From a virus (Duplodnaviria; Caudoviricetes), in IMG/VR virus record IMGVR_UViG_3300028797_000145, positions 1-64,000 of that record: a stretch of 64,000 nucleotides of DNA; one strand, 5' to 3'. The translations under genes and the position numbers were made by a program. The notes below the pieces were generated by a model that made no database searches, had not been told where the DNA came from, and saw only the letters and a list, made by a program, of their open reading frames with translations. Positions 1 to 22,366 of this stretch are shown piece after piece (position 1 is the first letter of the stretch; each line of letters opens with the position of its first letter).

Positions 1-558
1 ATAAGGGGAGGGGGTGGTTTTTGCGAGACCCCCCTATACCCTCCTTTATAAATCTCCATAGGGGGCCAAATTGCTAAAAATTGATAATTTAGCAAAAATT
101 GAAAAATTCTAAAAATTGGCAAAAAATTCAAAAATTTTACAAAATTGGCCATTTTCTAAAAAAGCTACTTTTTGTAGAAGTAGTCCATAAGTCCAAAATA
201 GTGTTATTGCATAATTTTCTATCATTTTAGAGATTTTTATTAAATGAGTATTGATGTTATTCAAATGAAGTTGAATCAAAGCTATCCGAAACAGCTTGTG
301 GTAGCAATAGCAAACTAATCCAACTGGTTCAAAAGCTATTTGCACTCAATTTCTTGAACATTGAAAGAGAACTCTTTATTAGTTTTATTGTTTAATCAGA
401 CTAGTTAATAGCAACAAAAGAAGTAAAGCACTTAGCAGGAATGGTAACTGGGAGTCTGTCCCAAATGCATGGTATCCTTGATGCTCTTAAAGTCATGTGG
501 TATACAAATCTATTCATTCCCACTAGGTGCTTACTATTCATGTTAAAGTTACTATTGA

Positions 559-1223
559 AAATATCAATACCGAAATTCTTTCTTTTTAGCTAAAGGAGGT
601 GTATACCTCCAATAAGGCCTGTATTGGAAAGGTCATATGAAAATATCAATGCGGGTAAAACCGCCATATGTGAGCCCTATATAAGGCCCTATATAGCCAA
701 AAATATCAATGGCTCTATTGATGTTTTTACTGTCGAGGATCTATAGAGACTATTAATGAGCGAAAATATCAATTTGGGTTTGCTCATAGCCTCCATAGAC
801 CCTTATAAGTATGACAGAAAGGGGTTGCAAATATCAATGCACCACAATTAGGAAAGCACTAAGAGGCCTTGTTAGGCCTCCGAGTACTGTAAATATCAAT
901 TAGCGCTTGCTTGTACATAAGAATTGTGCCTATAAGGGCTACTATTCAATGAAAATATCAATACTGTCCAAGCTGCTTCTAATACTATTGTGTAGTAAGT
1001 AATGTTTAAGCGCTAAAAATATCAATGTGTCAAATCTGAAACCCAATTATTCCACTATTGGATACTATACAAAAGCCTTTCAGAGAAAAATATCAATGCT
1101 CTAATTAGCTCTTTTAAACGTATAGCATCTATAGCGGAGAAGTAATTGATAATCTTAAAAATATCAATGCTATTTAGTGTAGTCAGACGGCCGAACCTTC
1201 TTATACAGGTTGAAAATATCATT
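559..1223. repeat. Array of AAATATCAAT repeats with unique spacers (10 exact copies plus 1 variant)
   Basis: AAATATCAAT starts at 559, 641, 701, 764, 829, 891, 953, 1017, 1088, 1159; AAATATCATT at 1214. Spacings 82, 60, 63, 65, 62, 62, 64, 71, 71, 55 bp. The region is non-coding apart from the last copy. Confidence 0.9.
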
Positions 1224-1436: not shown

Positions 1437-4307
1437 TTAGTTTCCACCAGTAAGATACTTCGAAACTGTCGAAGTACTAAGTCCAAGAGCTTTCGCAATC
1501 TCAGAATTTGTCTTTCCCATTGCAGCCATCGAATTGATTCTCTGTTGTTTAGCAGGAGTAACTTCTTTGAACGATCTAGGAGTTGCTCTTTCTCTAAGTT
1601 TGTCAGTATCTGTATACTGGAGAATCTGTGATAGCTTGTTTTCGGAAATTGCTCCAGACTGAATAGCTTCCCATTCTTTGTCATCAATATCAATAGGGTT
1701 TCTTTTAGCTCCTGTCTGGATTCTAGCCTTTGTTAAAGCTTGTTGACTTAACTTCTGGTATTCTTTCTTGTTGTTCTTGACAGTAGGCTCCATAGCAACT
1801 CGTCTTGCTAACTCTCTGTTTGCTATTAATTGAGCCTGTGTTTCTTTTTGCTTATTAGACTGAGCAAATTTCAGTTTCTCATCTAGAGACTTTACCTGAT
1901 CCTGGTAAACTTTAGCTGCTTCTTTCTTATACTCAAGACGATTTGTGTAAACCATCTCTTTTCTTGCCTCATTAGCCAATGACTTCAATTTATTGGCATA
2001 ATCGGCATAAGCTAGCTCTATAGGATGCCTCTTTTCAGATATCAATTTATAGGCATCGTCTACTTCTGCCATTTGCTTACTTCCCTGGGTCTTTTGTTTG
2101 ATCTTCCCAGTTTCGTAATACTTGGTACGCTCCTTACCATTCTCATCAATATAAGTCTCATTGATGAATTTTCCATTCTTATCCTTCAAATATCTACCAG
2201 TCTCAGGATCTACTTTTCTGACCGGTTTTCTATCAGGATACTCGAGGTCATATGCATTCTTAAATATCAATGCCCCTTCAGGCTTCGACGGGTCATACCA
2301 CTTTTTACCCTTCTGATTGATATTTGCATCTCCTCTTCTTCGCAAAACTGTTTCCGGAGCAGACGCTCTAGATATAATAGTACTTGCTCCCATGCTATCT
2401 TTTCCGTTCTTTCCTTCATGGAGCATGTACTTCTTTCTCAAAAGGGAAATATCATTGTCTGCTTCGGACTGTTTGTAGTCCAAATGATGCTTTTCGGCAT
2501 CGATGACAACCATAGAATGCCTAACCGCTTTTTCGATTTCATCATCGCTTGCACCTTTGATGGTCATATCAGTTATCAAGTTAGAAACCCTGCCCATTTC
2601 CTGCTGGGTATTCTTCATCTCTTTCATTCCAGGACGATATGCATATTCCATCTTTGCATCGAAATCTTTAAGTCTTTCGAAAGGTGGTCTGGAATCGATC
2701 TTTATTTTATCATTTGTGGGAATAACCATAACCGTATCCCCATCAAAGTCGGCACCAGAAAGCTGATCTGCAACTTCTTTTCGAATTCCAACCGCATCTT
2801 TGGGGTTGGTTCCAAATATCCTTTTACCTTCAGCATTCTTATTGTTAACTGTCAAGATTGGAATCTCGAAAGTGCCTCCATGAGGAAATCTCACAAGTGC
2901 AACTTTTTCACCATCTTGATAGTTTGGTGCATAGATCTCATTCTGCTTCAAAGAAGTCAATGGTAATATAACTTGATACTGTTGTCTTGGTAAAGCAGCA
3001 GCTTTCAAATGAACAGAAGCGGAATCACAATTGTTAGCAAACTCTTTTAAAAGTTTCTTCTTAATTGTTGGGTTTTCAAGATTGTTAATCTCTGCAAACT
3101 CCGTTTCTTTATCCGCAATTGCTAGATCAAGCTGTCGGTTAACCAATTTTCTGTTCTGCTTTGCCAAAAACTGAGAAGGGAGGTCATGACTCCATTCGCC
3201 CCAATCACCTTCGTCGCCTCTTTTGTTAATTAGAGACATCTTTTCTTCACCGGTCTTGGGATCAATATAATCGTACTGGCCACCTTTCTCTTTTATCAAC
3301 GATCCAAATGGATTTTCCGGATCATTTTTGATCTTCTTAAGAACTGTGTTGTTCTTGTCATCTCCTAATATCGGAGTTCCTTGCTTCTTGTTAGTATTAA
3401 ATCTCACATCAATACCATCTGGAAGGTCATCAGCATATACAGCCATACCTTTCAAATAGTGAGTTCCATCAACAAGAATTCTAACCTGAGCATAGTTAGA
3501 CTCACCCAACGAAATATCAGGCACTCCTCGTCTAAGCTCAATCACACCGTCTTTGTCAACACCGCCTTCTTCAGCGTACTTGACTTCGAGTCTTTTAGGA
3601 TCCAAACTCTGAGGATATCTAAAAGGCTTAGTGATCTTTTCTCCATCCTTGGTCAAGATTTCATCGTTGGTGTGATCCTTCAATGTATGAAGCTTCGAGA
3701 AATCGTAAATATCTTTGTACTCTGTTCCAGGAGGGCACACAACACTAACTGTTGTATACTTTCCAGGATTTGTTACCTGAGGGATTCTACGATTATAAAC
3801 TTCATAGCCTTGCTGTTGTAAAAGCAATACAGCTTCGTCAAGTTTCTCTTTAGAAACCTGAATTCCTTCTTCTCGCTCTACACCGGGCGATAATATAATT
3901 GGTCCTTTACTGTCTACAGCATTCTTCAAAAACTGGGATGCAGTTTTAGCTTTGTTTGCCCGCTCAACTGCGTTCTCGTTGAGCAACGACCTTACAGAAC
4001 TCTCTCCAGCAAGACCAAGCTCTTTCGCAATTGCTTCTTTACTCCATCCATCATTTAGTAGCTTCTTAGCTTGAGCTCGCTGATCGTTCTTAACCTCATC
4101 CTTAGCCATACGATATATCTTTCTAAGCTGTGTGGTTGTTGTATTAAACTTCTCAGCGATTTCTTTTTCGCTCAATCCTTCTGACCTGTACTTGTTGTAT
4201 CTGGTGTAAACATCAGTCATGTGCTGAAACGGATTCTCACCAGAACCCCAAGGATATCTACCAGATCTGCGAGGCATGCCATAGTGCTCAAGTTCCATAA
4301 ATATCAA
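1437..4307 (-). CDS. Putative single-subunit two-barrel (YonO/RdRP-like) DNA-dependent RNA polymerase with three HTH motifs
   Basis: Catalytic-type LSGADFDGDTV motif (DxDGD), upstream RFPHGG and YLKGMAV motifs; HTH-like segments GLSEKEIAEKFNTT and GWSKEAIAKELGLAGESSVRSLL at the N-terminus and GKTNSEIAKALGLSTSTVSKYL at the C-terminus. The start may be Met at 4298. Confidence 0.75.
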   Translation of the reverse strand: MIFMELEHYGMPRRSGRYPWGSGENPFQHMTDVYTRYNKYRSEGLSEKEIAEKFNTTTTQLRKIYRMAKDEVKNDQRAQAKKLLNDGWSKEAIAKELGLAGESSVRSLLNENAVERANKAKTASQFLKNAVDSKGPIILSPGVEREEGIQVSKEKLDEAVLLLQQQGYEVYNRRIPQVTNPGKYTTVSVVCPPGTEYKDIYDFSKLHTLKDHTNDEILTKDGEKITKPFRYPQSLDPKRLEVKYAEEGGVDKDGVIELRRGVPDISLGESNYAQVRILVDGTHYLKGMAVYADDLPDGIDVRFNTNKKQGTPILGDDKNNTVLKKIKNDPENPFGSLIKEKGGQYDYIDPKTGEEKMSLINKRGDEGDWGEWSHDLPSQFLAKQNRKLVNRQLDLAIADKETEFAEINNLENPTIKKKLLKEFANNCDSASVHLKAAALPRQQYQVILPLTSLKQNEIYAPNYQDGEKVALVRFPHGGTFEIPILTVNNKNAEGKRIFGTNPKDAVGIRKEVADQLSGADFDGDTVMVIPTNDKIKIDSRPPFERLKDFDAKMEYAYRPGMKEMKNTQQEMGRVSNLITDMTIKGASDDEIEKAVRHSMVVIDAEKHHLDYKQSEADNDISLLRKKYMLHEGKNGKDSMGASTIISRASAPETVLRRRGDANINQKGKKWYDPSKPEGALIFKNAYDLEYPDRKPVRKVDPETGRYLKDKNGKFINETYIDENGKERTKYYETGKIKQKTQGSKQMAEVDDAYKLISEKRHPIELAYADYANKLKSLANEARKEMVYTNRLEYKKEAAKVYQDQVKSLDEKLKFAQSNKQKETQAQLIANRELARRVAMEPTVKNNKKEYQKLSQQALTKARIQTGAKRNPIDIDDKEWEAIQSGAISENKLSQILQYTDTDKLRERATPRSFKEVTPAKQQRINSMAAMGKTNSEIAKALGLSTSTVSKYLTGGN

Positions 4308-4864
4308 TCCTCCTCGCTCTTAATCTTGGTGATGATCTTGTCAAAAGTAATGATCTTGTCCATGATCGGTGCAATGTCTTCCACCGTAGGATTGCATACT
4401 AAAATATCATCGTTCTGGTAGATACGCAGTTCCATTCCCAAGTCTGCTGGCTTGTACTTGTACTCCAAACAGAACAGAGCTGCATAAATCATTAACTGTT
4501 CCATGTGTGCTGGTATCAGACCAGTCTTCAAATCGTGAATTCTCAAAAGACCTTTCTTGTCCAATACAATTGCATCAGCTGTGCCGAAACAGTTGTCTGA
4601 AAAATATAAAACCTGCTCCGGTTTCATTCCGAAACCAATAGCATCATTCACGTACATGTTCAAAGTTTTCTGAGATCTTGGTAATCTCTGGTCCAACTTG
4701 ATACAAGTAGCCGCAAACTCATGAAGTTCAGTACCTCTTAAAGTTGCGAGGTGTTTAGAATATACCTCACCAATCTTTTCCGGATCGTAATTGATCCAGT
4801 GGTACTTACTTGCTCCGAGGAATGCGTGCTGTCCTACTAGGTTTGAATGCTTGTTCCAAATCAT
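4304..4864 (-). CDS. PD-(D/E)XK exonuclease (Cas4/DUF2800-like)
   Basis: CFGTADAI ... IHDLKTG ... QLMIYA motifs typical of phage RecB/Cas4-like nucleases. Confidence 0.7.
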   Translation of the reverse strand: MIWNKHSNLVGQHAFLGASKYHWINYDPEKIGEVYSKHLATLRGTELHEFAATCIKLDQRLPRSQKTLNMYVNDAIGFGMKPEQVLYFSDNCFGTADAIVLDKKGLLRIHDLKTGLIPAHMEQLMIYAALFCLEYKYKPADLGMELRIYQNDDILVCNPTVEDIAPIMDKIITFDKIITKIKSEED

Positions 4865-5126
4865 CGAGAACCTCCTCCTTGTTCTCAGGACTAATAAATC
4901 TTGAGAACGACATCTTGTTCATCAACTCAACATAGTATGGTTGATTAGGTCTCTTTTTGGCATTCTTCTCCTTTTTGCATTCCAGGGTTGCCCACTTCTT
5001 CTTGTACAATATCAATAGGTCGGGTACTCCTTGTTTGTACCTGGGATCCAGTTTCATTACCAAGCAACCTTCAAACCTTTCTTTTAGCTCTTTAATGAGC
5101 TTGGATTGAAAATCACTTTCCTTCAT
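4806..5126 (-). CDS. VRR-NUC domain nuclease (Holliday junction resolvase-like)
   Basis: MKESDFQSKL...GVPDLLIL...LECKK...RPNQ pattern; start moved to MKESDF at 5126. Confidence 0.75.
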   Translation of the reverse strand: MKESDFQSKLIKELKERFEGCLVMKLDPRYKQGVPDLLILYKKKWATLECKKEKNAKKRPNQPYYVELMNKMSFSRFISPENKEEVLDDLEQAFKPSRTARIPRSK

Positions 5127-5201
5127 AAGCAACGTCCTTTCAAAAGCAAAGAGAGAAAGAAATTTTTGTGCGTACAAAAAGTGCGCATAAAACGTCTCTC
5201 T

Positions 5202-5230
5202 CTCATAAAAGGGCATGATTTTTCTGCGAA
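5202..5230 (-). promoter_or_regulatory. Phage-specific promoter-like element (TTCGCA-N14-TTTTATGAG) upstream of the nuclease/RNAP operon
   Basis: Same 29-bp architecture as 17 other copies (see findings). Confidence 0.65.
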
Positions 5231-5282
5231 TGCCAAAAATATAAATTTTGTTAGTAGTCGGAACTTCTATACTCTGTTCTAC

Positions 5283-5621
5283 TCAGCTGTAAATATCCTC
5301 GTAGTCTAGAAATGCTCTGCTATTCTGTTCCAACTGCTCGAATACTACTTTCTCCTTTACTTCATCTTCACATTTCTTGCAAACAAACTTGCCTTCCATC
5401 CATCCGTCTGATGACTCATAGTCGAGATACTCATTACACTTCTCACAGAAGACTGCTATCTGCAAAATATCATTAGGGCTTTTGTCTGTCTTGTTGGTCT
5501 TTCCTCTAAGTTCATCTTCACCAACTTTAACACACTCGCTCTTAGCCACCAACTTCCCATTAATCTCTTTAAAGACAATTACAAAGTCTTGTCCGTAAAT
5601 ATCATTGTACTCATCTCTCAT
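5283..5621 (-). CDS. Hypothetical protein with C-terminal Zn ribbon (CEKC...CKKC)
   Basis: 112-aa ORF with two CxxC pairs. Confidence 0.65.
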   Translation of the reverse strand: MRDEYNDIYGQDFVIVFKEINGKLVAKSECVKVGEDELRGKTNKTDKSPNDILQIAVFCEKCNEYLDYESSDGWMEGKFVCKKCEDEVKEKVVFEQLEQNSRAFLDYEDIYS

Positions 5622-5734
5622 TCACTCACCGACTTTCTCAACCAGATCTCAAAAATATCAACAACCGCAAAACTAAAAGTTATTGCAATTGTACCTATAC
5701 CTCTGTTGAAAGTCAACAAGCTTCAAAGAAAATA

Positions 5735-6079
5735 TCATTCCGCGTACGGACACTCTCCAACAAACTCCGGATCTTTCTCTTTATCCTTCTTCTTATCTCT
5801 GCGATCTTTCACGAAAGCAATCACAACATCTTTTCGACAGAGTAACATTCCTCCGGTCTTAATCCCGTTGCATGCTTTCTCAACTTTGAACAAGTTGTAT
5901 CCTTCGTCAGAGAGTTCACCAAGAATATCAATAAACTCATTGTACGTAATTGAGCCGCACTCCTCAGAGCTCATCAATTCCGTGGTGATGTTAACTCCAC
6001 CTTCCTTGTCCGCTTTCTCCCTTAACCACTCTTTAACTTTTTTGTAGTCAGGAGATCTCTTGATCAACTTATTACTCAT
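5735..6079 (-). CDS. Hypothetical protein
   Basis: 114-aa ORF on the coding strand, composition like its neighbours. Confidence 0.6.
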   Translation of the reverse strand: MSNKLIKRSPDYKKVKEWLREKADKEGGVNITTELMSSEECGSITYNEFIDILGELSDEGYNLFKVEKACNGIKTGGMLLCRKDVVIAFVKDRRDKKKDKEKDPEFVGECPYAE

Positions 6080-6084
6080 AAGTC

Positions 6085-6550
6085 ACAAATCCGTCCTTTC
6101 TCCAAAAATATCATTTACAGCAACCTCAACACTAAAAATCACAATTACACATTTTTGTCCGTACATTAATCACAATTTGTTCACAATTTCTACATCACCG
6201 ATTATTGTCCGTACATTAATCACAAAAATCCTCAATTTTTACCTCGTGGCCAAAAACCCAAAAATTTTCGCTAAAACTTTTTATTTTTAGGTCTAGAATT
6301 TAAAAAGTCTTAAAAAAAAAATGGGTTTTTGGGCTTTTTCTGTACGTACAAAAACGTCTAGCCCAGTGTTTATCGGGGTTTGCGGGGTATGAGTCCGTGG
6401 CCAAACTATCAAAAAAAAATGGGCGAAAAGCCCAAATATTTGGGCGAAATCGACATTTTTTGCAAATTTTCATTTTTGTGCACACAACAATTTTCACGAT
6501 TTTTTGCAAAAACCCAAATTTTCCAAAAATATTTGGCCACAAAATTCACA
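6085..6550. repeat. AT-rich, A/T-tract non-coding region with direct repeats (origin-like)
   Basis: TGTCCGTACATTAATCACAA exact at 6156-6175 and 6206-6225; recurrent (C/G)TGGCCAAA/TTGGCCAC and AAAACCCAAA; long A/T runs. The ORFs here translate to low-complexity K/F-rich shadows. Confidence 0.55.
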
Positions 6551-6554
6551 CTTT

Positions 6555-6791
6555 TTACCCAACTTTTTCTGTTTTTGTCCGTACAAATTCGACCAGTTTT
6601 TGGCTACATTTTCGACAAAAATGCTGAATTTTACCATTATTTGAGTACAAATTCACCTGAATTTTATCCCGATTTGCCTTCGAATTACCCATATGTTCCT
6701 TCGGAATAGCCTCTCCGCACATGTCACAATGGTAAAATATCACCTGAATTGGGCCAAATTCACCCCTAAAATCCTCTCTAAAGACCTCCAT
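6555..6791 (-). CDS. Small Zn-binding hypothetical protein (CDMC...CRKC)
   Basis: RBS GGAGG, two CxxC pairs. Confidence 0.6.
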   Translation of the reverse strand: MEVFREDFRGEFGPIQVIFYHCDMCGEAIPKEHMGNSKANRDKIQVNLYSNNGKIQHFCRKCSQKLVEFVRTKTEKVG

Positions 6792-6808
6792 TTGACCTAA
6801 ATTACCTC

Positions 6809-6994
6809 CTATCTAGTCAAAAATATATAGGCCAGAACTGCAAAAAAGTACAAAATTACTGTGAAATCAGCGAAATTTGCGCCATTTGCATCCTCTTTAC
6901 CTACATTCGCAGCCAGCGTTATAGAGTATGTAATTAGGAATAGAAGGCTTAAGAACACCAAAAAGCATCTTAAAAATATCATTATTACCTCCAT
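6809..6994 (-). CDS. Small two-TM membrane protein
   Basis: 61 aa with two hydrophobic stretches; RBS GGAGG before the internal Met. Confidence 0.6.
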   Translation of the reverse strand: MEVIMIFLRCFLVFLSLLFLITYSITLAANVGKEDANGANFADFTVILYFFAVLAYIFLTR

Positions 6995-7162
6995 TTATCG
7001 ATAAAGCGTCCGTACACGGTCTTCAAAGTCATCCAAAATCTTTACTTTTTACATTTCCGGCCGAAAATATCACTTCAGAATACCTCTGTAAGGCCCAAAA
7101 TGGCCCATATAGAGCCTCCAAAAACCGCGTACAAACGCTATCGATCAACCTTTTAAAGCCTC

Positions 7163-7366
7163 TTAAATATAATTGTACGAGGCACAGGCCTTACAATCTG
7201 AGCATTGACGCTCAATACGTTCAGCCTTTATCAACTCATCAATACGCTCTTTTGACGTATTAGAAGCTACTTTCATTACACATTCCGGCATTTGATTCTT
7301 GCGAATATCCGAATCTGTGTAGCGAAGACCGGTAATTACACCGACATACTCAATTCCATTGCTCAT
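7163..7366 (-). CDS. Small hypothetical protein
   Basis: Adjacent to the upstream ORF, C-terminal CxxC pairs. Confidence 0.55.
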   Translation of the reverse strand: MSNGIEYVGVITGLRYTDSDIRKNQMPECVMKVASNTSKERIDELIKAERIERQCSDCKACASYNYI

Positions 7367-7603
7367 CTAGCAACCTCCTTTGCAACCAATATCAAGTTCT
7401 GTTCTTGGAAGGTTGTTTTCGTCTCCGCTTTTAGGTGGATTATCATGATAGTACTCAGATACGAGTTTTACCATCATGTGTTCCTTTGCTTCTTTTCGAC
7501 TACACCCTTCCTTTCTGCAGTATCGATCAATGTAACCATCGATAAGTTCCTGGATCTGTTCCTCTGTAGATTTTTTGTTATCTGCCAATGTCCTTTCCTC
7601 CAT
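7367..7603 (-). CDS. Small phage hypothetical protein
   Basis: 78 aa, good RBS, operonic spacing. Confidence 0.6.
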   Translation of the reverse strand: MEERTLADNKKSTEEQIQELIDGYIDRYCRKEGCSRKEAKEHMMVKLVSEYYHDNPPKSGDENNLPRTELDIGCKGGC

Positions 7604-7612
7604 TTACAAATA

Positions 7613-7852
7613 TCACCCGCGAACAATACCTTCTGATCCGGTATTACGAATGTTTACACGCGCAACCCCATTGTTCCAGTTCACAATAGCCAATGTCTCT
7701 GTCGGTGCTGTAAACTCCTGGTTAAACTTACAATCCAGTGACCCACATTTCAGAGAATATCTTTTTACCATTTCTGAAGGATCAGGGTGTCTCTTCACTT
7801 TAGGAGTATTTCCGCACTTAGGACAGGGGAGAATGTGAAAATTTGACTGCAT
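7613..7852 (-). CDS. Lar-family restriction alleviation-like Zn-finger protein
   Basis: LPCPKCG...CGSLDC...LAIVNWNN matches the Lar-like pattern (LxPCPFCG...C..C...A...WN). Confidence 0.55.
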   Translation of the reverse strand: MQSNFHILPCPKCGNTPKVKRHPDPSEMVKRYSLKCGSLDCKFNQEFTAPTETLAIVNWNNGVARVNIRNTGSEGIVRG

Positions 7853-8156
7853 TTCTTCTATACCTCTCTTTCAACTCAAGTAATTCTTCCAGCGTTTCGC
7901 TGTCCCTCTTAAGTAATTCTTGATGCTCACGTCTCAAACTCAGATAGTTAGACAAGAGATTTGCATACTTGTATACGAGAAGATTGTACTCTGCGTGAAT
8001 ATCATTGTCTTCCCATTCAGAAGCCTCGTCTAAGTAATCACTAAGCCCAGCCTCATCGAGATCTCCACACGTGTCTTCATCGTAGAGAATATCCTCCTCT
8101 ACCTCATCTTCTAAGTATTGGTGCTCAGGTTCGAACACTTTCTTTATACTGATCAT
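7818..8156 (-). CDS. Acidic coiled-coil hypothetical protein
   Basis: 112 aa, D/E-rich N-half and heptad-like C-half. Confidence 0.6.
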   Translation of the reverse strand: MISIKKVFEPEHQYLEDEVEEDILYDEDTCGDLDEAGLSDYLDEASEWEDNDIHAEYNLLVYKYANLLSNYLSLRREHQELLKRDSETLEELLELKERYRRNAVKFSHSPLS

Positions 8157-8167
8157 TTATTACCTCC

Positions 8168-8419
8168 TCATTCATCTTCTCTAAGCGAATCAATCATGGC
8201 TTCAATGTGATCACGGATGAAGTCCAGTTTGCATCGTTCAAGTTCTTTAGGTGCAACCACCCAGGTAATTTTTGCATCTGTGTCTTTGTCAAGAACCACG
8301 ATACGAATATAACCAGACTTTCCAAGTCGTCCTTTATTAAATGTAAAAGAGACTTCGAAGTTTTCCGGAATGAACACATTGTCCAATTCAGAATATAACT
8401 TGTATAAACAGCTGCTCAA
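8168..8419 (-). CDS. Hypothetical protein
   Basis: 83 aa, 4-bp overlap with the upstream gene. Confidence 0.6.
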   Translation of the reverse strand: MSSCLYKLYSELDNVFIPENFEVSFTFNKGRLGKSGYIRIVVLDKDTDAKITWVVAPKELERCKLDFIRDHIEAMIDSLREDE

Positions 8420-8775
8420 TTAATCACTTCCTTTTTTAAATTGTATTTGAAGAACGCTTTACGATTCTCGAAATTCTTTGGATCGTACGTACCATTCTTC
8501 AAAGCTTCGTAAATATCATGCTCCATGCTCTTAAGGAACTCCCACTCAAACCAGAATCGGCCATACCTTTCGGACTCATATAGAATGATTACCCAGCCTT
8601 CATCTAGTTCCGAGTTAAATATCCCGGTGATAGCAAATGATAGAGAGCAAGGATCGACTACTTCCATGTATTTCTTGAGAGCGTCATTACACTCACCAAA
8701 ATATAAGAAGTTAGCTTTACTTCCGATCTTGACTTTTTCTCCTTTGTACGCGTCAATAGCTTCTTCAAGAGTCAT
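8416..8775 (-). CDS. Hypothetical protein
   Basis: Start moved to MTLEE (RBS GGAG upstream). Confidence 0.55.
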   Translation of the reverse strand: MTLEEAIDAYKGEKVKIGSKANFLYFGECNDALKKYMEVVDPCSLSFAITGIFNSELDEGWVIILYESERYGRFWFEWEFLKSMEHDIYEALKNGTYDPKNFENRKAFFKYNLKKEVIN

Positions 8776-9029
8776 ATTCCAAACTCCTCCAGTTCCGAGT
8801 AAAATATCAACAAGGCTTAAGTTTGTCCGTACTGATCCAAGCACCTGCGGGACTACCACTGCTTAGTTTTACATCATCCGACCAGTACTTCTGTTCGTAA
8901 GGGTGCCGGTGAGTGAACAAGTACTTTTTGCCGTTATACAAGAAATATCTTCCTGCGAAAGGCGGTTTCTTTACGGACAGGTTAGCCTCAATCACCATGT
9001 CGTAATCCTTCATCTCAAGTTCTTTCTCT

Positions 9030-9450
9030 CTACTCATGTGTTTCCTCCTCGTTAATAGTGGGTTCGTACTTGGCAAGCTTCTCTCTTAGCTTCTGTATCG
9101 TACGCTGCTGAGCATCAATGATCTTGCGATCGAGAATCAGCAAGTTTTTCAATGCCTCAGCAAATTCATCCAGTTCATTTTTTTCTGCTTCCGAAATATC
9201 TTTATTTTCGTCTTCCAACTTACTTAACCTCCTTCTTATACTTTGGATTTGTGGTGTGCTTGCATTCCTTTTGGCACGAAGTCTTCTTGCACTCGGTGTT
9301 TTTCTCAGGATCGCACAAGTACATAGGCTCAAAACCGTAGAACGTGAATACACCTTCTTTGTCGCATGCCTTAAATACCGGTGGTTTCCTAAGAATATAA
9401 GTAGTCCCCTCGTACGTAAGACACCCGTAACCTCCTGCCTTTCCAGCCAT
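9030..9450 (-). other. Two overlapping small ORFs (9030-9353 coiled-coil; 9220-9450 Cys-rich); true starts uncertain
   Basis: ORF track; located between the helicase and the downstream small genes. Confidence 0.4.
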
Positions 9451-10745
9451 TACTTCACCTCCCCATAGTTTTTAGTAACCTGAAATGGTTGTTTGAAAAT
9501 ATCATTGCTGATGAATTTCGTTTCATTAAACTTCTTCTTTTCGCTCAGAGCCTTCTCGATGGATAAGTCAATGTGAGATCTGGTCTTGAGATGGTAATAC
9601 CAGAGATCTACATACTTGGTGTTCATTCGATCAATACGACCCGCTGCCTGCTCCATAATTCGATAGGAGTAGTTCGGTGAGAAGAATATAATAGTGTCGG
9701 TTGTGATGCAGTTCCAACCCTCAGCACCTGATGAGTACTGCACTAAATATACCCACTTGTCTCCTTCTGGTATTGGATCGTGTCTCTGGCCGTTGCACTC
9801 TGCTATTTGGTAGCCTTGATCTTCCAAGCAAGACAAGTTTTCTTTGAGCATCTCTAGTTCGGCAATCAGGTTGTAAAATATAATTGTCTTAGGATGCTTG
9901 TCTACCAGCTCAAGCACTTTAACCATTCGTGATACATCGGTGTTTACTAATCGTCGTAGGCAATAGCAATACTCGGATGCATTCTCGATTGGTTGGCCTT
10001 TGAATATGTTCCATCGCTCTTTGGTGATCTGCTTGTACAAGTTGCGGTCGTAGTCTACGTAAATATCCTCATGGTGGACTACCGTTGGCTTCTTTACAGG
10101 AATATCCACAAGTAGAGAGTCTCTGTATCGTGCCAGCTTCTTTGTTCCAAGATAGCGATCAATCTTAGGGAAGTTTGTGAATGGTGAAAATATCACATGC
10201 TCGTTGTTGAACGCTGTTCGGTTCGGATAGAATCCATTTGCGATGAAGACTGGTATGTAATCTTCCCATTTGTCTCCAGGAGTTGCAGAGAGTAGAATCC
10301 ATTTGTTTCCACGGGCAATTTTCAAGAATGACTTAACCCAAGATCCTCGACCTACAACTCTTTGCTCGTCAAATATAAAGAAGGCACCTTTTACACCGGC
10401 ATACTTTCCTATGTTGTTCCAGCTGTCAACTACTACTTTGTTTTGGTAATAGTTGAGCTCGGGAATCGTACTTAGATGGAACGGAATCATCTCGTCTTCC
10501 CATTCCTGCGAGTCTCTCTTTTTTGCTGTGGTGATGATGTATAGATCTACAGGTTGACACATCTCTTGTGGTTCGTAGTTGTTTTTTACTTTTTCCCATT
10601 CACTAAATACTTCTCCACCTTGAGAAATATAATAGTAGGCTAGAGAGGTCCGGCTTTTACCAGACCCCACTCCACCACAAAGTATGCAACCGTTGTGCAT
10701 CTTGCTTACAGCTTTCCTCTGAGCTTCATTAAGTAACTCAGCCAT
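9450..10745 (-). CDS. SNF2/DEAD-like superfamily 2 helicase
   Basis: Walker A GGVGSGKS, motif II FDEQ, LLSATPG, QYSSGAEGWN, motif VI QAAGRIDR. Confidence 0.9.
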   Translation of the reverse strand: MAELLNEAQRKAVSKMHNGCILCGGVGSGKSRTSLAYYYISQGGEVFSEWEKVKNNYEPQEMCQPVDLYIITTAKKRDSQEWEDEMIPFHLSTIPELNYYQNKVVVDSWNNIGKYAGVKGAFFIFDEQRVVGRGSWVKSFLKIARGNKWILLSATPGDKWEDYIPVFIANGFYPNRTAFNNEHVIFSPFTNFPKIDRYLGTKKLARYRDSLLVDIPVKKPTVVHHEDIYVDYDRNLYKQITKERWNIFKGQPIENASEYCYCLRRLVNTDVSRMVKVLELVDKHPKTIIFYNLIAELEMLKENLSCLEDQGYQIAECNGQRHDPIPEGDKWVYLVQYSSGAEGWNCITTDTIIFFSPNYSYRIMEQAAGRIDRMNTKYVDLWYYHLKTRSHIDLSIEKALSEKKKFNETKFISNDIFKQPFQVTKNYGEVK

Positions 10746-10772
10746 ACTTTTGTCCTTTCTTTTTTTTAAATA

Positions 10773-11498
10773 TCAACGATACAGTCTTCTGCAAGGACCG
10801 CCACGAGTTCCTTTATGCTCATTTTTCTTGAGATCTGGAAGGAGCTGCTCCATAGCTTCGAATGTCTTGCATTCCATTCGGAATGAAAGTACCCACATGT
10901 ATCCTCGCTTAAAAAGTTCGTTGTCTGTTGTATTCCTGGTAATTCTGTATTTGGAAATGGATCCGCTCTTCTTCTCATGAGCTTCGAAATCATCTTCCCA
11001 CTCAGTAGCGAACTCCTTAGCCGTCTCCTGCGATTTGAAATATATATAACGCTTTGTCGGTCTTTTCTTAGGAGTAATGTAAACGGATTCAGAAATATCA
11101 TTCTCTTTAGTTTCTTTCGAGAGCGGTTTGAGACTGCAATTTTCGGATACCAACGTAGCACCCTTGAACTGCGAAAGGTATGACCCAAGAGTCTGCGGTT
11201 CTTTAGTCTCTTTTCTTTCCTCTCTCTTTTTTCTGGCTTGTTCTTCTTTGTTCACAAAATATGAATTGTACTTGGAACGGTCCTCAAACCAGTTTTTGCT
11301 TATCTCGGAATCGTCGAGTTCTGGAACATCAGAAACCGCCTTCTCCTTAGGCTGCTCGAGACAAATATCCAGGTGGACAATCCCGGTTCCACCGGTTCCG
11401 AAGTTGTATTTACTAACTTCATACTGCCCGAGACCCATGTGATTCATGTTCATCAAATCGTTAATAAGTTCTCCAAATGTCATAATTTTTTCCTCCAT
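10773..11498 (-). CDS. Hypothetical protein
   Basis: 241-aa ORF with RBS GGAGG. Confidence 0.7.
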   Translation of the reverse strand: MEEKIMTFGELINDLMNMNHMGLGQYEVSKYNFGTGGTGIVHLDICLEQPKEKAVSDVPELDDSEISKNWFEDRSKYNSYFVNKEEQARKKREERKETKEPQTLGSYLSQFKGATLVSENCSLKPLSKETKENDISESVYITPKKRPTKRYIYFKSQETAKEFATEWEDDFEAHEKKSGSISKYRITRNTTDNELFKRGYMWVLSFRMECKTFEAMEQLLPDLKKNEHKGTRGGPCRRLYR

Positions 11499-11525
11499 TG
11501 AATTAAGCTGAACTAAATTACAACC

Positions 11526-11566
11526 AAGAAGAAAGAGCCCTGGTAAATATAACCCAGAGCTCCTTC
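11526..11566 (-). terminator. Intrinsic terminator-like hairpin with UUAUAUUU in the loop
   Basis: Minus-strand GAGCUCUGG-GUUAUAUUUA-CCAGGGCUC-UUUCUUCUU; a G-U pair indicates the minus-strand RNA. Confidence 0.7.
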
Positions 11567-11745
11567 TCCATAATGGAATGTGTTAATATTGCGATCATCT
11601 AAATAGCCTACCATTACGACCTACAGTTTTCGAATAATACTGCTGCCAAAAACCATCGATCGAACAGTAATGCATAGCTAAAAATAGATCAGGCTTGTCA
11701 TTGTCATCTTCTTCATCATCCAAATCATCTGAATCAGAAATATCA

Positions 11746-12243
11746 TCATTCATTCTCAGGTGACCTCCAGTTGTATCTGCTTGCCCAAGGATCGTCAGCT
11801 ACATCCTGCTCGACATACATCGTCTGTACGTACAAGGTCCAGGTGTCTCTTTCCGGATTATAGTTAGGATGAAGAGTAGCGTTTACGTTAAGCACATAAA
11901 CCTCATCAAGCATATGAACCCGCTCCTCATCAAGTTCGTTAGGAACTCCGTTGGTTACCAGGAAGATTCGAGGTTTACGCTTGGGATGTGCATAACCGAT
12001 GATGATCGGTACAAAATATGTAGGAACAAAGCCCTCTTCCTCACCTTCACGAGGAATGGTCGTCTTTACACGGTACCCGGCTTCCTGCATCTCGATAGCC
12101 TGCTCCTCAGTAGGGATGATCAGGTTACCACGTCTGGTTGTGGACTTGTACTTATCCTTGTTCGGATCGCCTGCAAAATTAGTTCTGTAAATGAAGTTAG
12201 TGTTCTCAATGAAGATTGGATCTCTGTAGACTCTTTCAGCCAT
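11746..12243 (-). CDS. Putative single-stranded DNA-binding protein
   Basis: Next to the polymerase gene; IENTNFIYRTNFAG N-terminus and acidic/aromatic DDPWASRY tail resemble phage SSB-like proteins. Confidence 0.55.
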   Translation of the reverse strand: MAERVYRDPIFIENTNFIYRTNFAGDPNKDKYKSTTRRGNLIIPTEEQAIEMQEAGYRVKTTIPREGEEEGFVPTYFVPIIIGYAHPKRKPRIFLVTNGVPNELDEERVHMLDEVYVLNVNATLHPNYNPERDTWTLYVQTMYVEQDVADDPWASRYNWRSPENE

Positions 12244-12281
12244 TTTAAAATTCCTCCTAAATATAAGTTTTTTGTAGTTGT

Positions 12282-15200
12282 TTATTCTTCAAGAGCCCAA
12301 GGAAGTTGTTCATCCTCAGGCTCATTCATGAAGTTCTCAGCGAAGTTTACGTCGCCTTTGTAAAACTCAGGGTTCGGATAGGACATGTCTTCTCCAGGAA
12401 TATAATCCGGTCCGACATAAGGATCCTCAGACACAAACCATGTGTAATCACCAAATTGCATGATGTCACCCATAGCATTGTGCGCTTGAGTTTCGAAATA
12501 TGACATGTCGATCTCTTTCTCTAACCCGAGACCTTTGATCAATTCCGATTCCTTCCATCTTGTGCCCTTTGTTCCACTTACTGAATAGTACTTTCCGTCC
12601 TTTTCTCTCATCAGAAGTCCTCCGCCGCTGCCCTCAATTACCGGACAGAACTGGCCAACCTTCCCGATGAAAATATAATTGTGACCCTTTTCGATTTCCT
12701 TTACCAGACGTGAACCCTCGCTCTCCCAAGTTGTATCAGACAACTCACCTTTCTTATACTTCGATTGAAGCTTCTTATACTCCTTCTCGAACAAAGAAAC
12801 ATCGGGATAGCCTTCGTTCATGTCTAAATATAACGCTGAAGTCACACTGTTTGTCACACAAAGATCCCTGAATGATACCGGATCCTTGCTAAACAATGTC
12901 TTGAAAATATAAGGTACCTGGAATTCAGTACCAGTTGCTGTCCAAGGTGTTTCTACAACTTCACCCGTGGGCAATTCGAACTTATGCGGTCCATCTGCAT
13001 ACTTAGCAATATAAACCGCATCATTGATCAGACACATTCTCTCATACGTAGCCTCATGCTCAAATGTGTAACCGTACAGTTTACCATACTCCATAACAAA
13101 CTCAATGATCTCAGGAGTTGCATCCGGGATCTTAATAGAGTCTGTCTTAATATGAGCAACTTTGTATCCCATACGTTGAACTTCGTGCTTGAGGTTGATC
13201 ATGAACAACGCTCCACGCTTTGCCACGATGTTGTCCACGTTCCGATCATCCTTAAACGGATTCGAGAATGATGCTGATGTCAAACCATACACCGAGTTAA
13301 TCGGAATCTTAATAGCATTTGCTAACTGCTTGGAAGTCATTTCTCCGTCTTTGACTTTCTGAATATACTTCTCAAGCTTTCCACCAAACATTCCAGACAG
13401 TTCTTCCCAGTTCTGGTGTTTGATGTTAAGTCTTCCTGTTACAAGATCTTCATAGTTCTCGGTGTACTTACCAAACAATTCCTCTGCAATAATACTTGAC
13501 GGATGCATTGAAGCAATATCAAGAAGTGCCACATTACCATACATTCCAGGTTCTGCGTAGACATACCCACCTTCTGAAGGATTCTCTCCTCTGTATGAGC
13601 TCTTACCAAGTTCATACTTGTACCCAGGAAATATAGGTCTACCATCTGCGTCAAACACTGTCCACTCTTTGTCATAGATCTCAGGAAGATCACTGTCTAC
13701 AGCTTTAGACATATCTCCAAGATCTCTCCAGTTTAATTCGGATTGTGTATTCCTTTCTTTTCCAAATATCAGTCTGGTGGTTAACGAGTTGGATGTGTCA
13801 TTCACAGTCATTCCTGTGATGTCGGCAAGGATCTGTCTTGCTGTCCAGTCAGCATTTAGGTAATTGAATGCTTCTTCAGTTGCATTTACATCGTTACAGC
13901 AGTACTCAGCAACTCGATCCCATAAGTTGACAGGAATGTTACCGTTTTCGTCAGCTTGCGGTGCATGAGACTCTTTTGACTCAACTTCCGGATCCGATGC
14001 GGGAACCCAATGATCACCAAGAATATAAGCCCATTCCGGAACCGGTTTGTCCCAAGGAATACCAAGCTCATCATGGTGGATTCCCATCTTGATCTCAAGT
14101 TTCTTAAGCGAAGTTTTGTTGTCCCCATTCGCGAAGTCATAAATATCAGTGTATGACAAGTTGTATGCTTCACTAAAGAAGCTCTTCTTGTCTCCACTAA
14201 TGATCTTCTGCGACAAGTTGTACAGTTGCTTATTGTTGTAACCCATTAATCGGGCATACAGGATGTGGTTATCATACCTCCTGCAATTGAAACCTACGAG
14301 TTTGAACTGAAGAAGACCTTCGATCTGTTCGGATGTAGGATTGATCATTCTGTTTACATCTTTTGCTCCAATCTTTTTCCAACATAGAACAAACAGATTC
14401 GGGAACACCTCAACGTCGAAGAATATAATTTCTCCGTCCGTACCCTTCTTAGAATCTCCTCTAACGTCGATTGAAGGATACACCATCTCTCCTACTTCTT
14501 TTAAAGCTTCTTCGTTAGGTTTTCCAAGCAGATGAATATCATCCACTACCATCAAGCATCTTTTAGACTGATGTGTACTTGACTGAGCAAACGCGATCAA
14601 TGCGTTCTTCATGTCACGAATATCATAAGCCATACCAGACTCGTATGAGTCATCCGTAAGCTTCTTAATGAAGTTGATGCTGGATGAAGTGTCTCCATGA
14701 AATTCCTTTTCGAAGTTTTTCTCGATCATGCTTCTTAAGTTCTTTTCATCCTTAATTGCGTTTTGATTAGTTGCCACTTTTCGCTCCTTTCTAAGAGGAA
14801 GTCCCGAACTAATCGTAGCGATCGCTAAATTCGTACAAAGCGTTAATTTTCTTCTTAACGACGCATTACCTTTGGCAACTTTCACCTCGACATGCTCAGA
14901 CACATGATCCGCCAACCTGCTTACATCTCCCTGGTAAATATAATGTAGATGAATACCAGCACCGGATTTGCTTAACTCCGCATAAGTTGGTGGCCACTTT
15001 GCTGCCTCTGCCAAGTTCTTTTCCAAAGACTTGTTACCGTCGTCTCCCGGAATATCAAAGTCAATAATGATGTGATTCTCCGGAACTTTCACATAGTGAA
15101 GTTTAGAAGTGTCAATATCACGAAGAGTTGTCTTGCAGTTCGACCATTTGTACATCGGTCTATTCTCTTCTGCTGAAGACAATTGCGCAGGACAGTCACC

Positions 15201-16586
15201 ATACTCCGCATCAAATCGTGAGGGCTGCTGTTGCATGACGATCCAGTTTTTTTCTTCTTCTTTCACTTCAACCTTCCTTTTGTTCTTTTCGAACTTGTCT
15301 ACACGGAAACCCGAGTACCAACTACGAACTCTACTTCCGTCTTCAAATTGTTTCCTTTCTTCGTACTCTTCCCAATACGCTTTGAACTCCTCTCTAAATA
15401 TCCTGTACTGCAGCGGATACGGTGTCTTTGTGTCATCACAGAATGTCTTGTACCGTTCCCAAGCAGCCTTAAGGGTTATGCCATCCGCCTTCTTAAACTC
15501 ATAGTAACCATCTACCATGAAGTTATAAAAGTCGTTAGTCACTTCGAGCATGTTGATCGGAATATAATCGTCGAACATTCCAGGATCTGACAAATATATA
15601 TCCAGACAATGACTAGCGATGGCACCCAGTTCGAACTTCACGTTTTTTACAAGCTGGGCATACTCACGACGACCGATGAGGTTCCCACTAGGAGTTACAT
15701 CGATCAATCTTCTGAGCAAACCTGACTTTGCGTCCGTGATCTTAACTGGTTTGTTCGTACCTAAAAATAAAAATGCCTTGAATCTGTTGGCATAAGTGGA
15801 TTTGTATTTCTCGTTTACAGTCATCGTTTCGTGAGAAACTAAACTGTTGAGTCTTGTGTTATCTTCAATTCTTGACAAGTCACCATCGTGTTGGATTGCG
15901 ACCAGAGGATTTGTCTTGAACGCTTCCAACGCAAATACGTTCGTACTCGATCCTAAAGCTTTCGCATCGAATGCCGACCAATATCCGTCGAAGAGCTGTT
16001 CAATAATGTTAAGAATTGTAGACTTACCTGTTCCTGCCTCACCATAGAATACTAAGAACTTCTGTATCTTCTTTGAGTCACCTGCTACCACACTTCCAAT
16101 AGCCCATTCGATCTTTTTTCTCTCTTCCGGAGAATATAACGTGCCGATGAGCTTGTCGTATGATGAATAGTCGCCGGGTTCCAGAGGATACGAGAGCATC
16201 TTGCTGGCATAATCTGTCTTCTTAACTTCGAAGTTCGAAAATATAAGATTCTCGTCAAGCATGTGAAAACTATCTCTACATTGCTTTTGACAATACTTAT
16301 GCCACTTGTCTATCGAACCCGAGTCTGCATCCCACATATGTAACACTCTTGCGGTTGGCATCTCAGCTTTTCTAGACTGATAGTATGCATCAAGTTCTCT
16401 GTCTATAAGTTGAATGACATCATCTTCTTCGGTAGACCACAATCCTTTGTCTTCCAACCAGATCGCATAGAAATCCCCACCTCGAATCATTAAGTCTTTT
16501 GACTTATTGTTAATAATGAATTTCGGGAAGATCTCTATTCCACCATTCTTGGTGGATCTTGTAGAAACCATGAAAAAATCCACCAT
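12282..16586 (-). CDS. Fused SF3 helicase / primase / family B DNA polymerase with 3'-5' exonuclease
   Basis: GEAGTGKST Walker A; IIDFD...SKSGAGIHLHY primase (AEP/Prim-Pol-like) motifs; exonuclease FFDVEV, GFNCRRYD, YCCNDV; PolB motifs DIASMHPS, KIPINSVYG, KTDS. Start set at MVDFF with RBS AGGAG. Confidence 0.9.
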   Translation of the reverse strand: MVDFFMVSTRSTKNGGIEIFPKFIINNKSKDLMIRGGDFYAIWLEDKGLWSTEEDDVIQLIDRELDAYYQSRKAEMPTARVLHMWDADSGSIDKWHKYCQKQCRDSFHMLDENLIFSNFEVKKTDYASKMLSYPLEPGDYSSYDKLIGTLYSPEERKKIEWAIGSVVAGDSKKIQKFLVFYGEAGTGKSTILNIIEQLFDGYWSAFDAKALGSSTNVFALEAFKTNPLVAIQHDGDLSRIEDNTRLNSLVSHETMTVNEKYKSTYANRFKAFLFLGTNKPVKITDAKSGLLRRLIDVTPSGNLIGRREYAQLVKNVKFELGAIASHCLDIYLSDPGMFDDYIPINMLEVTNDFYNFMVDGYYEFKKADGITLKAAWERYKTFCDDTKTPYPLQYRIFREEFKAYWEEYEERKQFEDGSRVRSWYSGFRVDKFEKNKRKVEVKEEEKNWIVMQQQPSRFDAEYGDCPAQLSSAEENRPMYKWSNCKTTLRDIDTSKLHYVKVPENHIIIDFDIPGDDGNKSLEKNLAEAAKWPPTYAELSKSGAGIHLHYIYQGDVSRLADHVSEHVEVKVAKGNASLRRKLTLCTNLAIATISSGLPLRKERKVATNQNAIKDEKNLRSMIEKNFEKEFHGDTSSSINFIKKLTDDSYESGMAYDIRDMKNALIAFAQSSTHQSKRCLMVVDDIHLLGKPNEEALKEVGEMVYPSIDVRGDSKKGTDGEIIFFDVEVFPNLFVLCWKKIGAKDVNRMINPTSEQIEGLLQFKLVGFNCRRYDNHILYARLMGYNNKQLYNLSQKIISGDKKSFFSEAYNLSYTDIYDFANGDNKTSLKKLEIKMGIHHDELGIPWDKPVPEWAYILGDHWVPASDPEVESKESHAPQADENGNIPVNLWDRVAEYCCNDVNATEEAFNYLNADWTARQILADITGMTVNDTSNSLTTRLIFGKERNTQSELNWRDLGDMSKAVDSDLPEIYDKEWTVFDADGRPIFPGYKYELGKSSYRGENPSEGGYVYAEPGMYGNVALLDIASMHPSSIIAEELFGKYTENYEDLVTGRLNIKHQNWEELSGMFGGKLEKYIQKVKDGEMTSKQLANAIKIPINSVYGLTSASFSNPFKDDRNVDNIVAKRGALFMINLKHEVQRMGYKVAHIKTDSIKIPDATPEIIEFVMEYGKLYGYTFEHEATYERMCLINDAVYIAKYADGPHKFELPTGEVVETPWTATGTEFQVPYIFKTLFSKDPVSFRDLCVTNSVTSALYLDMNEGYPDVSLFEKEYKKLQSKYKKGELSDTTWESEGSRLVKEIEKGHNYIFIGKVGQFCPVIEGSGGGLLMREKDGKYYSVSGTKGTRWKESELIKGLGLEKEIDMSYFETQAHNAMGDIMQFGDYTWFVSEDPYVGPDYIPGEDMSYPNPEFYKGDVNFAENFMNEPEDEQLPWALEE

Positions 16587-16636
16587 TTTTAAACTCCTAT
16601 TCTTTTTTAATTTAGACAAATTAAGAAAAATATAAC

Positions 16637-16939: not shown

Positions 16940-17013
16940 GTTTTTCTCCTTTCATAGTCAAAAATATAAGTGGATGATGTCATCCCTCATACTAGACCGT
17001 GTAATTTTTGCGC

Positions 17014-17523: not shown

Positions 17524-17529
17524 AACTCA

Positions 17530-18673: not shown

Positions 18674-18718
18674 TGTTTATTCCTCCCTTTTCGTTTAAGT
18701 TTGATAAATATAAGTAAG

Positions 18719-19219: not shown

Positions 19220-19286
19220 AAAATGACCTCCAATTAGAAAAGACCGTCACCGACTAAATATAAGTCGGGACGATCCTTCGCGCATG

Positions 19287-20228: not shown

Positions 20229-20245
20229 AAATATAACTCCTTCTC

Positions 20246-22325: not shown

Positions 22326-22366
22326 GTCATTCTCCTTTCATGAATATAATTTTGCAAGCTAAAGAG

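Follow-up and report, generated by a model that had tools for sequence, protein, structure and literature searches.

Bacterial chromosomes, and the genomes of one group of mycobacteriophages, contain short polar words that steer DNA-tracking enzymes, such as the FtsK-orienting polar sequences (KOPS), Chi, Ter and stoperators. Lambda cosQ lies upstream of the terminal cohesive-end site (cos), where it affects the incoming motor in one orientation, and the T7 primary origin and phiOR are made of tandem phage promoters followed by AT-rich DNA or by the concatemer junction. The stoperators of Cluster A mycobacteriophages (L5 gp71; PMC9283540) are asymmetric 13-mers located in intergenic gaps, and their orientation follows local transcription. 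Here we describe a repeat array at the genome end of a temperate phage from bovine gut metagenomes, and the short word that this array shares with the rest of the genome. The window analysed comprises the first 64 kb (64,000 nucleotides) of an 86,891-bp virus record (IMGVR_UViG_3300028797_000145; Caudoviricetes), which was rated complete by CheckV. All genes except one lie on the minus strand of the window (hereafter the gene strand), and the array occupies part of a 1.17-kb non-coding stretch between the last, 82-aa open reading frame (ORF) and window base 1. No account of a phage word with whole-genome polarity, a terminal array and a switching specificity was found in the literature searched, including the paper on this phage family (bioRxiv 10.1101/842583).

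A word kept on one strand of the genome

A sequence-only reading of the window had reported ten exact repeats, spaced by 60-82 bp, in a non-coding stretch after the RNA polymerase operon, and this description was confirmed. Exact copies of AAATATCAAT start on the plus strand at 559, 641, 701, 764, 829, 891, 953, 1017, 1088 and 1159, with spacings of 82, 60, 63, 65, 62, 62, 64, 71 and 71 bp, and the 13 copies found in the whole window compare with 0.49 expected, none of 100 shuffles giving as many. A degenerate eleventh copy, AAATATCATT, is located at 1214-1223 within the end of the last ORF. When the array copies are read on the gene strand, a 14-nt consensus is common to them, cATTGATATTTT(c/t)a. 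The spacers (50-72 bp) are unique, as had been stated, and none of them matched elsewhere in the genome better than shuffled controls, whereas the sub-motifs that they had been said to share are marginal, AATAGT occurring in 5 of the 10 units where the 95th percentile of shuffles is 4. No credible ORF was found in the array region, the gene calls ending at 1170; searches of the region gave no tRNA and no Rfam family match other than sub-threshold chance matches, and the 1.5-kb array region had no DNA match among 50,697 phage records. A contig variant of about 94% identity spans the whole array with only 1-nt insertions.

The array belongs with an octamer that the same reading had seen dispersed over the window, since the same word recurs genome-wide on the gene strand. 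In the whole genome, TGATATTT occurs 57 times on the gene strand against 3 times on the other, where about 3 are expected, and the last dispersed copy lies at 65484, just past the window end. The tolerated core of the word is T-K-ATATTT, with TTATATTT divided 62:1 between the gene strand and the other strand, and KATATTT sums to about 190:10 by strand genome-wide (about 178 in the list of dispersed copies). Among 2215 hexamers, ATATTT is the most enriched (z +19), and the reverse complements ATATAA, AAATAT and AATATA rank first, second and fourth among the most depleted. Enrichment within genes is three- to four-fold over the synonymous-codon expectation, KATATTT being found 128 times against 35.2 ± 5.1 after synonymous-codon shuffling and TGATATTT 33 times against 6.3, and it is seen in early genes (89 vs 21.3) as well as in late genes (39 vs 13.2). 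Copies are about four-fold denser in intergenic DNA, where several stand 10-30 nt ahead of a ribosome-binding site (RBS), and information in the dispersed copies is confined to 8 nt. The density of TGATATTT drops with distance from the array, from 32 copies in the first 12 kb to 18 in the next 28 kb and 7 in the last 47 kb.

The integrase gene, the sole clear opposite-strand gene, separates the direction of the word from the direction of the genes. It carries eight word copies in genome polarity against 0.93 expected, showing that the polarity of the word is genomic and not set by gene direction. The excess over synonymous-codon shuffling and the depletion of the reverse complements show that the word is selected at the DNA level. 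Because the word keeps its strand in this antisense gene, the signal would be read on DNA, one way along the chromosome, and not on mRNA, and the counter-selection of the reverse complement likewise points to reading on DNA. The array consists of clustered copies of the dispersed word, presumably of high affinity, and it is quite probable that together they form a phage-encoded, strand-polar recognition system on double-stranded DNA, with the array as its terminal cluster. Among the three functions first offered for the array, a DNA platform for protein binding (an origin, packaging or loading zone) is thus the class that the evidence favours, while any particular reader is at best a doubtful assignment. 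The features concerned are collected in Table 1.

Table 1. Positions of the array, the word, the local folds, the neighbouring genes and the other array types; positions refer to the window unless another sequence is named.
Feature	Position	Strand	Remarks
Array of ten exact ATTGATATTT (gene-strand reading; AAATATCAAT on +)	553..1223	-	plus a degenerate 11th copy
Dispersed word copies	2262..63999	-	46 TGATATTT copies beyond those of the array, with 21 between 1.3 and 12 kb, 18 between 12 and 40 kb and 7 between 40 and 65.5 kb
Integrase, sole clear opposite-strand gene	38007..39200	+	8 copies in genome polarity (AAATATM on +), none in its own sense
G-run / A5 / C-run block	1..60	.	flanks the right cohesive end; also in Lactococcus phage 1706 and read-through relatives
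Phased A/T tracts, AAAAATTG-like, ~10 bp period	66..160	.	between array and genome end
Long imperfect inverted repeat, ~22 bp stem, around the copy at 764	734..803	-	fold z -5.4; only very strong word-in-loop hairpin
Spacer hairpin GGAGGCCU/AGGCCUC inside a longer stem	839..900	-	fold z -3.6; word not enclosed
Hairpin with the copy at 1088 in its loop	1058..1127	-	fold z -2.7
Last gene, 82 aa	1170..1418	-	PHROG 4303; conserved family-wide behind the polymerase gene
Single-chain two-barrel (YonO/RdRP-like) RNA polymerase, 953 aa	1437..4298	-	PHROG 4291; N- and C-terminal helix-turn-helix (HTH) domains
Exonuclease gene	4304-4864	-	first in gene-strand order toward the array
Type-2 array, TTCCATGGTGAA	L021 12001-12310; G006 (L274, IMGVR_UViG_3300037512_000662) last 400 bp		8 to at least 14 copies
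Type-3 array, CAAAGTTGGAAAA (CCAAAGTTGGAAAA)	L137 6098-6240		at least 4 copies, each with an ATATATA run ~12 nt later

Related phages and the switching of the word

The polymerase encoded next to the array marks a supercluster of actinophages, Lactococcus 1706-like phages and Faecalibacterium phages (bioRxiv 10.1101/842583). Its family counts 250 cultured records, and many prophages of Lachnospiraceae, Ruminococcus and Oscillospiraceae carry it as well. The sequence-only reading would have been weakened if related phages lacked a periodic array, and the same array was found in the same place in several of them. L061, whose polymerase is only 42% identical, has nine copies of the same word at 66-75 bp, and L065 has eight to ten copies; further same-word arrays in L049, L002 and L232 are interrupted by contig ends, and L041 has an array of the variant TGATATTC. 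The proposed phasing at every ~6 helical turns is not conserved, since the spacings of relatives are 30, 34-37, 49, 66-75 and 83 bp. Adjacent units in L061 and L065 are recent duplicates, whereas in the phage described here the spacers have diverged and all ten words are exact. The array of both L061 and L065 abuts cos, and most other relatives have one to three TGATATT copies at most about 60 bp from the cos block, and one such copy lies within the G/C hairpin loop. The bias of the dispersed word forms a continuum among relatives, from 5 per kb down to background, and the dispersed polar word is not present in Lactococcus phage 1706 or in the R. torques and Hungatella prophages. A polar word proper to phage 1706 was also considered and rejected, its best hexamer, TTGACC, being not polar (25:17).

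Two further array types occur in the family, each with a word of its own. The type-2 arrays start 2-8 nt past the stop codon of the polymerase gene and reach at least 14 copies at 30-45 bp spacing, and the contig of G006 (99% complete) breaks inside near-identical 30-bp units. In L021 and G006 the dispersed hexamer CGATGG is split 37:3 by strand, and 21 of the 37 copies in G006 fall in the last 6.5 kb before the array. In L137, whose contig ends within its type-3 array, AAGTTGG is dispersed with a ratio of 6:0. Since L021/G006 and L137 each have their own word both arrayed and dispersed, arrayed and dispersed words switch together between related phages, revealing a conserved architecture with switching specificity in a widespread phage family. 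The word could have been exchanged on two or more occasions within this family (TGATATTT, CCATGGTGAA and AAGTTGGAAA) with the architecture kept, which we put forward tentatively as one part of the polarity code discussed below. Other pattern matches were set aside: the viral matches L050-L060, L062-L064, L066 and L067 are unrelated tandem or coding repeats, and the metagenome matches, among those listed, are mostly unrelated low-GC tandem repeats, with only L232 in the family.

Host genomes and candidate readers

The word is not a host word in the two prophage hosts examined. In these Oscillospiraceae with word-rich prophages (G001 and G002), TGATATTT occurs at control level save for a one-strand excess, G001 having 24 copies on one strand against 24-25 for the control and G002 being similar; the one-strand excess, which was not located, fits the prophage. 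In Hungatella the word has no strand skew, with about 100 vs 81 copies over 1.66 Mb. As a separate observation, TGATATTT exceeds its backward control three- to four-fold on both strands of three Lachnospiraceae genomes (G003, G004 and G005), an excess that may be compositional and that is not seen in G001 or G002.

Among the proteins scanned no FtsK-like gene was found, and the terminase is the phage's only known translocase. The HTH domains of the polymerase were considered as readers of the word and appear to be poor candidates, their recognition helices being nearly unchanged across the three word types.

The genome end and neighbouring genes

Several assemblies stop at the G-run/A5/C-run block (two samples on record), and contig ends coincide at window base 1 in the record itself, in a 9,345-bp contig from the second sample and in a 26-kb Logan contig from run X1, which may itself be the source of this record. 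Lactococcus phage 1706, a cultured member of the family, has the same G-run/C-run block at its right end. In read-through relatives, the G-run, A5 and C-run are followed by a GC-rich piece of about 13 nt, CATCGCGSCGRYC, and then by TCTCCGGGGG. The junction of the two ends of the record (window 1-60 joined to genome 86,700-86,891; L271) is without this GC-rich piece, as expected if a cohesive overhang was lost during library preparation, so that the missing piece is probably the single-stranded cohesive overhang. From these contig stops and this comparison, the two contig ends are taken as the cohesive ends, window base 1 being a physical cos end, which places the array 0.55-1.2 kb inside the right cohesive end.

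The left genome end begins with CTTTCAATTTTCTCCGGGGG, after which come GGATATTTTTGATATT and, ahead of the first gene, a long inverted repeat that is imperfect. If the map is closed to a circle, the array is separated by 550 bp from cos, and cos by 190 bp from the PHROG 4259 gene, behind which come an HNH endonuclease gene and later TerL; this gene order beyond cos is common to L061 and L065. The phased A/T tracts between the array and the genome end form an AT-rich stretch that is intrinsically bent, and L021 has a much larger AT-rich zone (400 bp) in the same position.

The start of the polymerase ORF (window 4290-4310) lies about 8 codons downstream of that in most relatives, whose protein begins MNPIAEDILM. 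A word copy ahead of the ATG (4299) was rejected as an independent regulatory site because it is homologous to the codons D-I-L-M in the longer N-terminus of the relatives, its GATATTT corresponding to D-I-L, and its TGA is the stop codon of the exonuclease gene. The polymerase homologue is annotated as 'structural protein' in Lactococcus phage 1706 (orf75, L070 2082-5171) and in Rhodococcus phage ReqiPoco6, a hint that the polymerase could be carried in the virion.

A 29-bp promoter-like element was aligned at 16 sites between window positions 5202 and 37496, with the form TTCGCA-N-AAATAACA-N5-C-TTTTATGGA (TTCGCA..TATGGA) and the invariant positions GCA..C..C..ATG. It usually stands right after a T-run or a terminator hairpin and before RBS-led early genes, and KATATTT lies at most 45 nt upstream of it in 6-8 of the 16 sites, twice in a terminator loop (36447 and 36765). 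Elsewhere in the early region, a 264-aa protein (33754-34548, minus strand) has the catalytic domain of a microbial-type poly(ADP-ribose) glycohydrolase (PF10021, E 1.4e-29) and is a possible counter-defence gene, and a single tRNA-Val (anticodon AAC) is found amid early genes at 22366-22439 (minus strand).

What could read the word

Given its polarity, its purge from one strand and its terminal array, the word may serve as a phage-specific 'genome polarity code' of some temperate gut phages in the 1706/actinophage supercluster, from which a DNA-tracking machine, either the terminase or a helicase-nuclease, could read direction and distance to the end; this is a tentative proposal whose chance we put somewhat below even. 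More specifically, the copies may be oriented candidate binding sites for the terminase/cos machinery, an assignment that we regard as possible but on the unlikely side, and that is preferred because of the gene-independent polarity, the purge of the inverse word, the density rise toward cos, the bent DNA, the adjoining terminase genes and the copies at the cos block in relatives. The PHROG 4259 protein, which resembles a small terminase, would be a putative reader together with the HNH endonuclease and TerL, and the genes for these proteins begin 190 bp past cos. Oriented sites could recruit and aim the terminase, and their rising density could concentrate it beside cos, while the ten-fold array upstream of the terminal cos might act as an approach or braking signal for a motor coming from the left, and so be in function a counterpart of lambda cosQ/cosB with many copies. 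A copy facing the other way would nucleate the machine, or stall it, in the wrong direction, which would account for the purge of such copies.

Several points weigh against a reading by the packaging machinery. Recognition of words dispersed over a genome is not known for any terminase, and across 81 related loci the word density is tracked by none of the genes in the ±10 kb around the polymerase gene, the terminase genes among them. The conserved RATTTTTG-like box immediately left of cos has no clear switch to the type-2 word in G006, so that the argument from cos-proximal copies is only partial, and in L021 and G006 a gene and 400 bp of AT-rich DNA lie between the array and cos. Moreover, the family members without a polar word (phage 1706 and the R. 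torques and Hungatella prophages) rely on the same cos architecture for packaging, which makes the word an accessory rather than a core part of packaging. Should the packaging machinery read the word, a cos terminase would be able to draw on sequence information at a distance from cos.

The closest rival, which we consider unlikely, would make the copies tandem promoters or loading sites of the adjacent HTH-bearing YonO-like polymerase, a late-promoter battery firing through the ligated cos into the 47-kb packaging/structural operon, with the dispersed copies as weaker starts. There is a precedent in SPbeta, where YonO starts the late operon just downstream of its own gene and upstream of a non-coding RNA (PMC5467207). 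The array always lies behind the polymerase gene and is oriented toward cos and the late genes, the avoidance of the reverse complement would fit an avoidance of antisense promoters, and the intergenic density with its copies ahead of an RBS would suit promoters; TATAG also follows the word by 19-20 nt in 4 of the 10 units, and TATAC follows it by 18 nt in three units of L065. Such a role is, however, hard to reconcile with eight copies that oppose the integrase gene and none in its sense, with the 128 copies inside genes, with dispersed copies that lack information past 8 nt, and with recognition helices of the polymerase that are nearly the same across the three word types. A separate promoter-like element, the 29-bp element with its 16 copies, already stands before RBS-led genes; matches to sigma-70 -35/-10 boxes in 1-1500 number 6 against 5.7 ± 2.4 in shuffles and are unaligned with the units; and there are relatives that have the polymerase but not the word. 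Were the copies promoters after all, they would be the first for a large family of single-chain two-barrel RNA polymerases.

Protection of the genome end in the manner of Chi is less probable again. A helicase-nuclease entering at the right end, assumed to be the first into the cell, would run into the word on the 3'-ended strand, approaching it from the word's 3' side, and would be switched off, the array being a ten-fold guard and the inner copies back-ups. The orientation suits an entry at base 1, as the minus strand that carries the word has its 3' end at the window start, the density falls steeply from that end, the polarity is independent of genes, and unique spacers could prevent recombinational loss. 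Nevertheless, known Chi sequences are G-rich and the word is A/T-only, it is neither over-represented in G001/G002 nor strand-skewed in Hungatella, related phages have different words, and a purge of the inverse orientation is not predicted. The phage nuclease would have to be postulated, and yet the exonuclease and the helicase are also found in relatives without the word.

We give a similarly low probability to a replication origin, in which the array would provide iterons for a phage initiator, such as the 1445-aa helicase-primase-polymerase fusion, the AT-rich tract would unwind, and replication would proceed one way and codirectionally with the genes. The dispersed words, lying on the template of the lagging strand, could then be priming sites, one word per ~270-900 bp being of the order of Okazaki fragments. 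The gene for the helicase-primase is, however, 11 kb from the array, spacings of 30-83 bp and a site of 10-14 bp are unlike classical iterons, which have 17-22 bp, keep a helical register and stand beside or within the gene of the initiator, and neither the gradient toward the array nor the purge of the inverse is predicted. No AT-rich zone accompanies the array where it abuts cos, in L061 and L065, and a PDB sequence search with the replication protein gave no relative supporting an origin-binding domain. These points have to be set against the direct repeats beside an AT-rich bent region (phased A/T tracts about 390 bp off, and a very large zone in L021), the strand polarity that is independent of genes, and the fast change of cis sites that is typical of initiator-iteron pairs. 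Origins made of iterons and AT-rich DNA, and the P4 alpha architecture with its primase, superfamily 3 helicase and winged-helix domain, have been described (PMC2777425).

Stoperator-like silencing, by which an immunity repressor on the word would block elongating RNA polymerase in the lysogen and the array would insulate the late operon from read-through, has its precedent in Cluster A mycobacteriophages (PMC9283540) and would suit a temperate phage with an integrase and many prophage relatives, asymmetric co-oriented sites enriched at gene boundaries, words that differ between relatives like immunity specificities and the virulent phage 1706 without a polar word, but it is very improbable, since the orientation should follow transcription and does not flip in the integrase gene, most copies are intragenic, inverse copies should be harmless and yet are purged, a Pfam scan of 19 ORFs between 32 and 42 kb, on either side of the integrase, gave no HTH repressor, and a gradient toward the right end is not predicted.

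A structured non-coding RNA had been offered as a second and a third function, in the form of a transcript with many hairpins that would present the word as a protein sponge and of an array cut into ~62-nt units, and both are poorly supported. The whole array region folds better than shuffles do, with z -7.4 on the gene strand and a smaller departure on the other (z -4.3), the word lies in the loop of a long hairpin in two units, and 8 of the 57 genome copies have a flanking stem of at least 5 bp, compared with 5% at random positions. The short hairpins that had been listed do exist, but the repeat is placed in their loops at chance level, the mean flanking stem being 2.9 bp against 2.7 bp at random positions. 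Display in hairpin loops was therefore rejected as a general feature, since significant folding was found in only 2 of 10 motif-centred 70-nt windows, and 8 of 10 motif-centred and 8 of 10 spacer units fold no better than shuffles. With no common fold and no Rfam family match, spacers that have no targets in the genome and are not conserved between relatives as the word is, and a polarity tied to the DNA strand even in an antisense gene with the inverse word purged, such an RNA has a very small probability.

These readings lend themselves to direct testing, as the site is 11-14 bp (e.g. cATTGATATTTTCA), the candidate readers are few, and cultured Lachnospiraceae isolates have related prophages, among them the isolate behind locus L073 with a word-rich one.

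Comparison with known systems

The array resembles CRISPR in its regular identical repeats and unique spacers of about 55 bp. CRISPR repeats, however, are ~21-48 bp long, usually partly palindromic and accompanied by cas genes or a leader, whereas here the repeat is 10-14 bp, the spacers are unmatched and the word is dispersed; no cas family was found among the annotated proteins of the window, in agreement with the sequence-only reading, which had taken the array as non-CRISPR. A sponge RNA of the CsrB type shows its motif repeatedly in hairpin loops, and here two of the ten windows fold. With Cluster A stoperators, each bound by a single molecule of a cognate immunity repressor, the phage shares many co-oriented, phage-specific asymmetric sites in a temperate genome, often at gene junctions and with varying specificity, and it differs from them in having no flip in the integrase gene, mostly intragenic copies and a terminal array. 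Like Chi of RecBCD/AddAB, a polar 5-8-mer that host chromosomes contain in excess and with a replication skew, the word has the right orientation for entry near an end and would be protective if clustered there, but it is A/T-only, not host-enriched in G001 and G002, variable between phages and purged in the inverse orientation. The T7 origin and phiOR and the YonO late promoter of SPbeta likewise present repeated sites after the last gene, facing an AT-rich zone, a junction and late genes; the phage described here differs in its separate 29-bp promoter-like element and in copies that oppose the integrase, and a promoter role of its word is only putative.

The packaging sites of other phages, namely the R sites of lambda cosB and cosQ, the P1 pac hexamers and the SPP1 pac boxes, are clustered short oriented sites with bent DNA near the cut and near a small-terminase gene. 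The array is likewise a cluster of short oriented sites with bent DNA, and its distance from cos varies, from arrays that abut cos in L061 and L065 to arrays set apart from it by a gene and an AT-rich zone in L021 and G006. The sites of those other phages number 1-7 at most about 200 bp from the cut, and none is known to be echoed genome-wide, whereas here about 190 copies are spread over the genome, 0.55-1.2 kb separate the array from the end, and binding is putative. The polar octamers read by FtsK and SpoIIIE (KOPS, the SpoIIIE recognition sequences (SRS) and the architecture imparting sequences (AIMS)) share with the word its over-representation on one strand, the counter-selection of the inverse, the independence from genes and a density that rises toward the target. 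What sets the word apart from them is that it belongs to a phage genome, holds one polarity from end to end, is specific to the phage, and ends in a discrete terminal array of extended sites.

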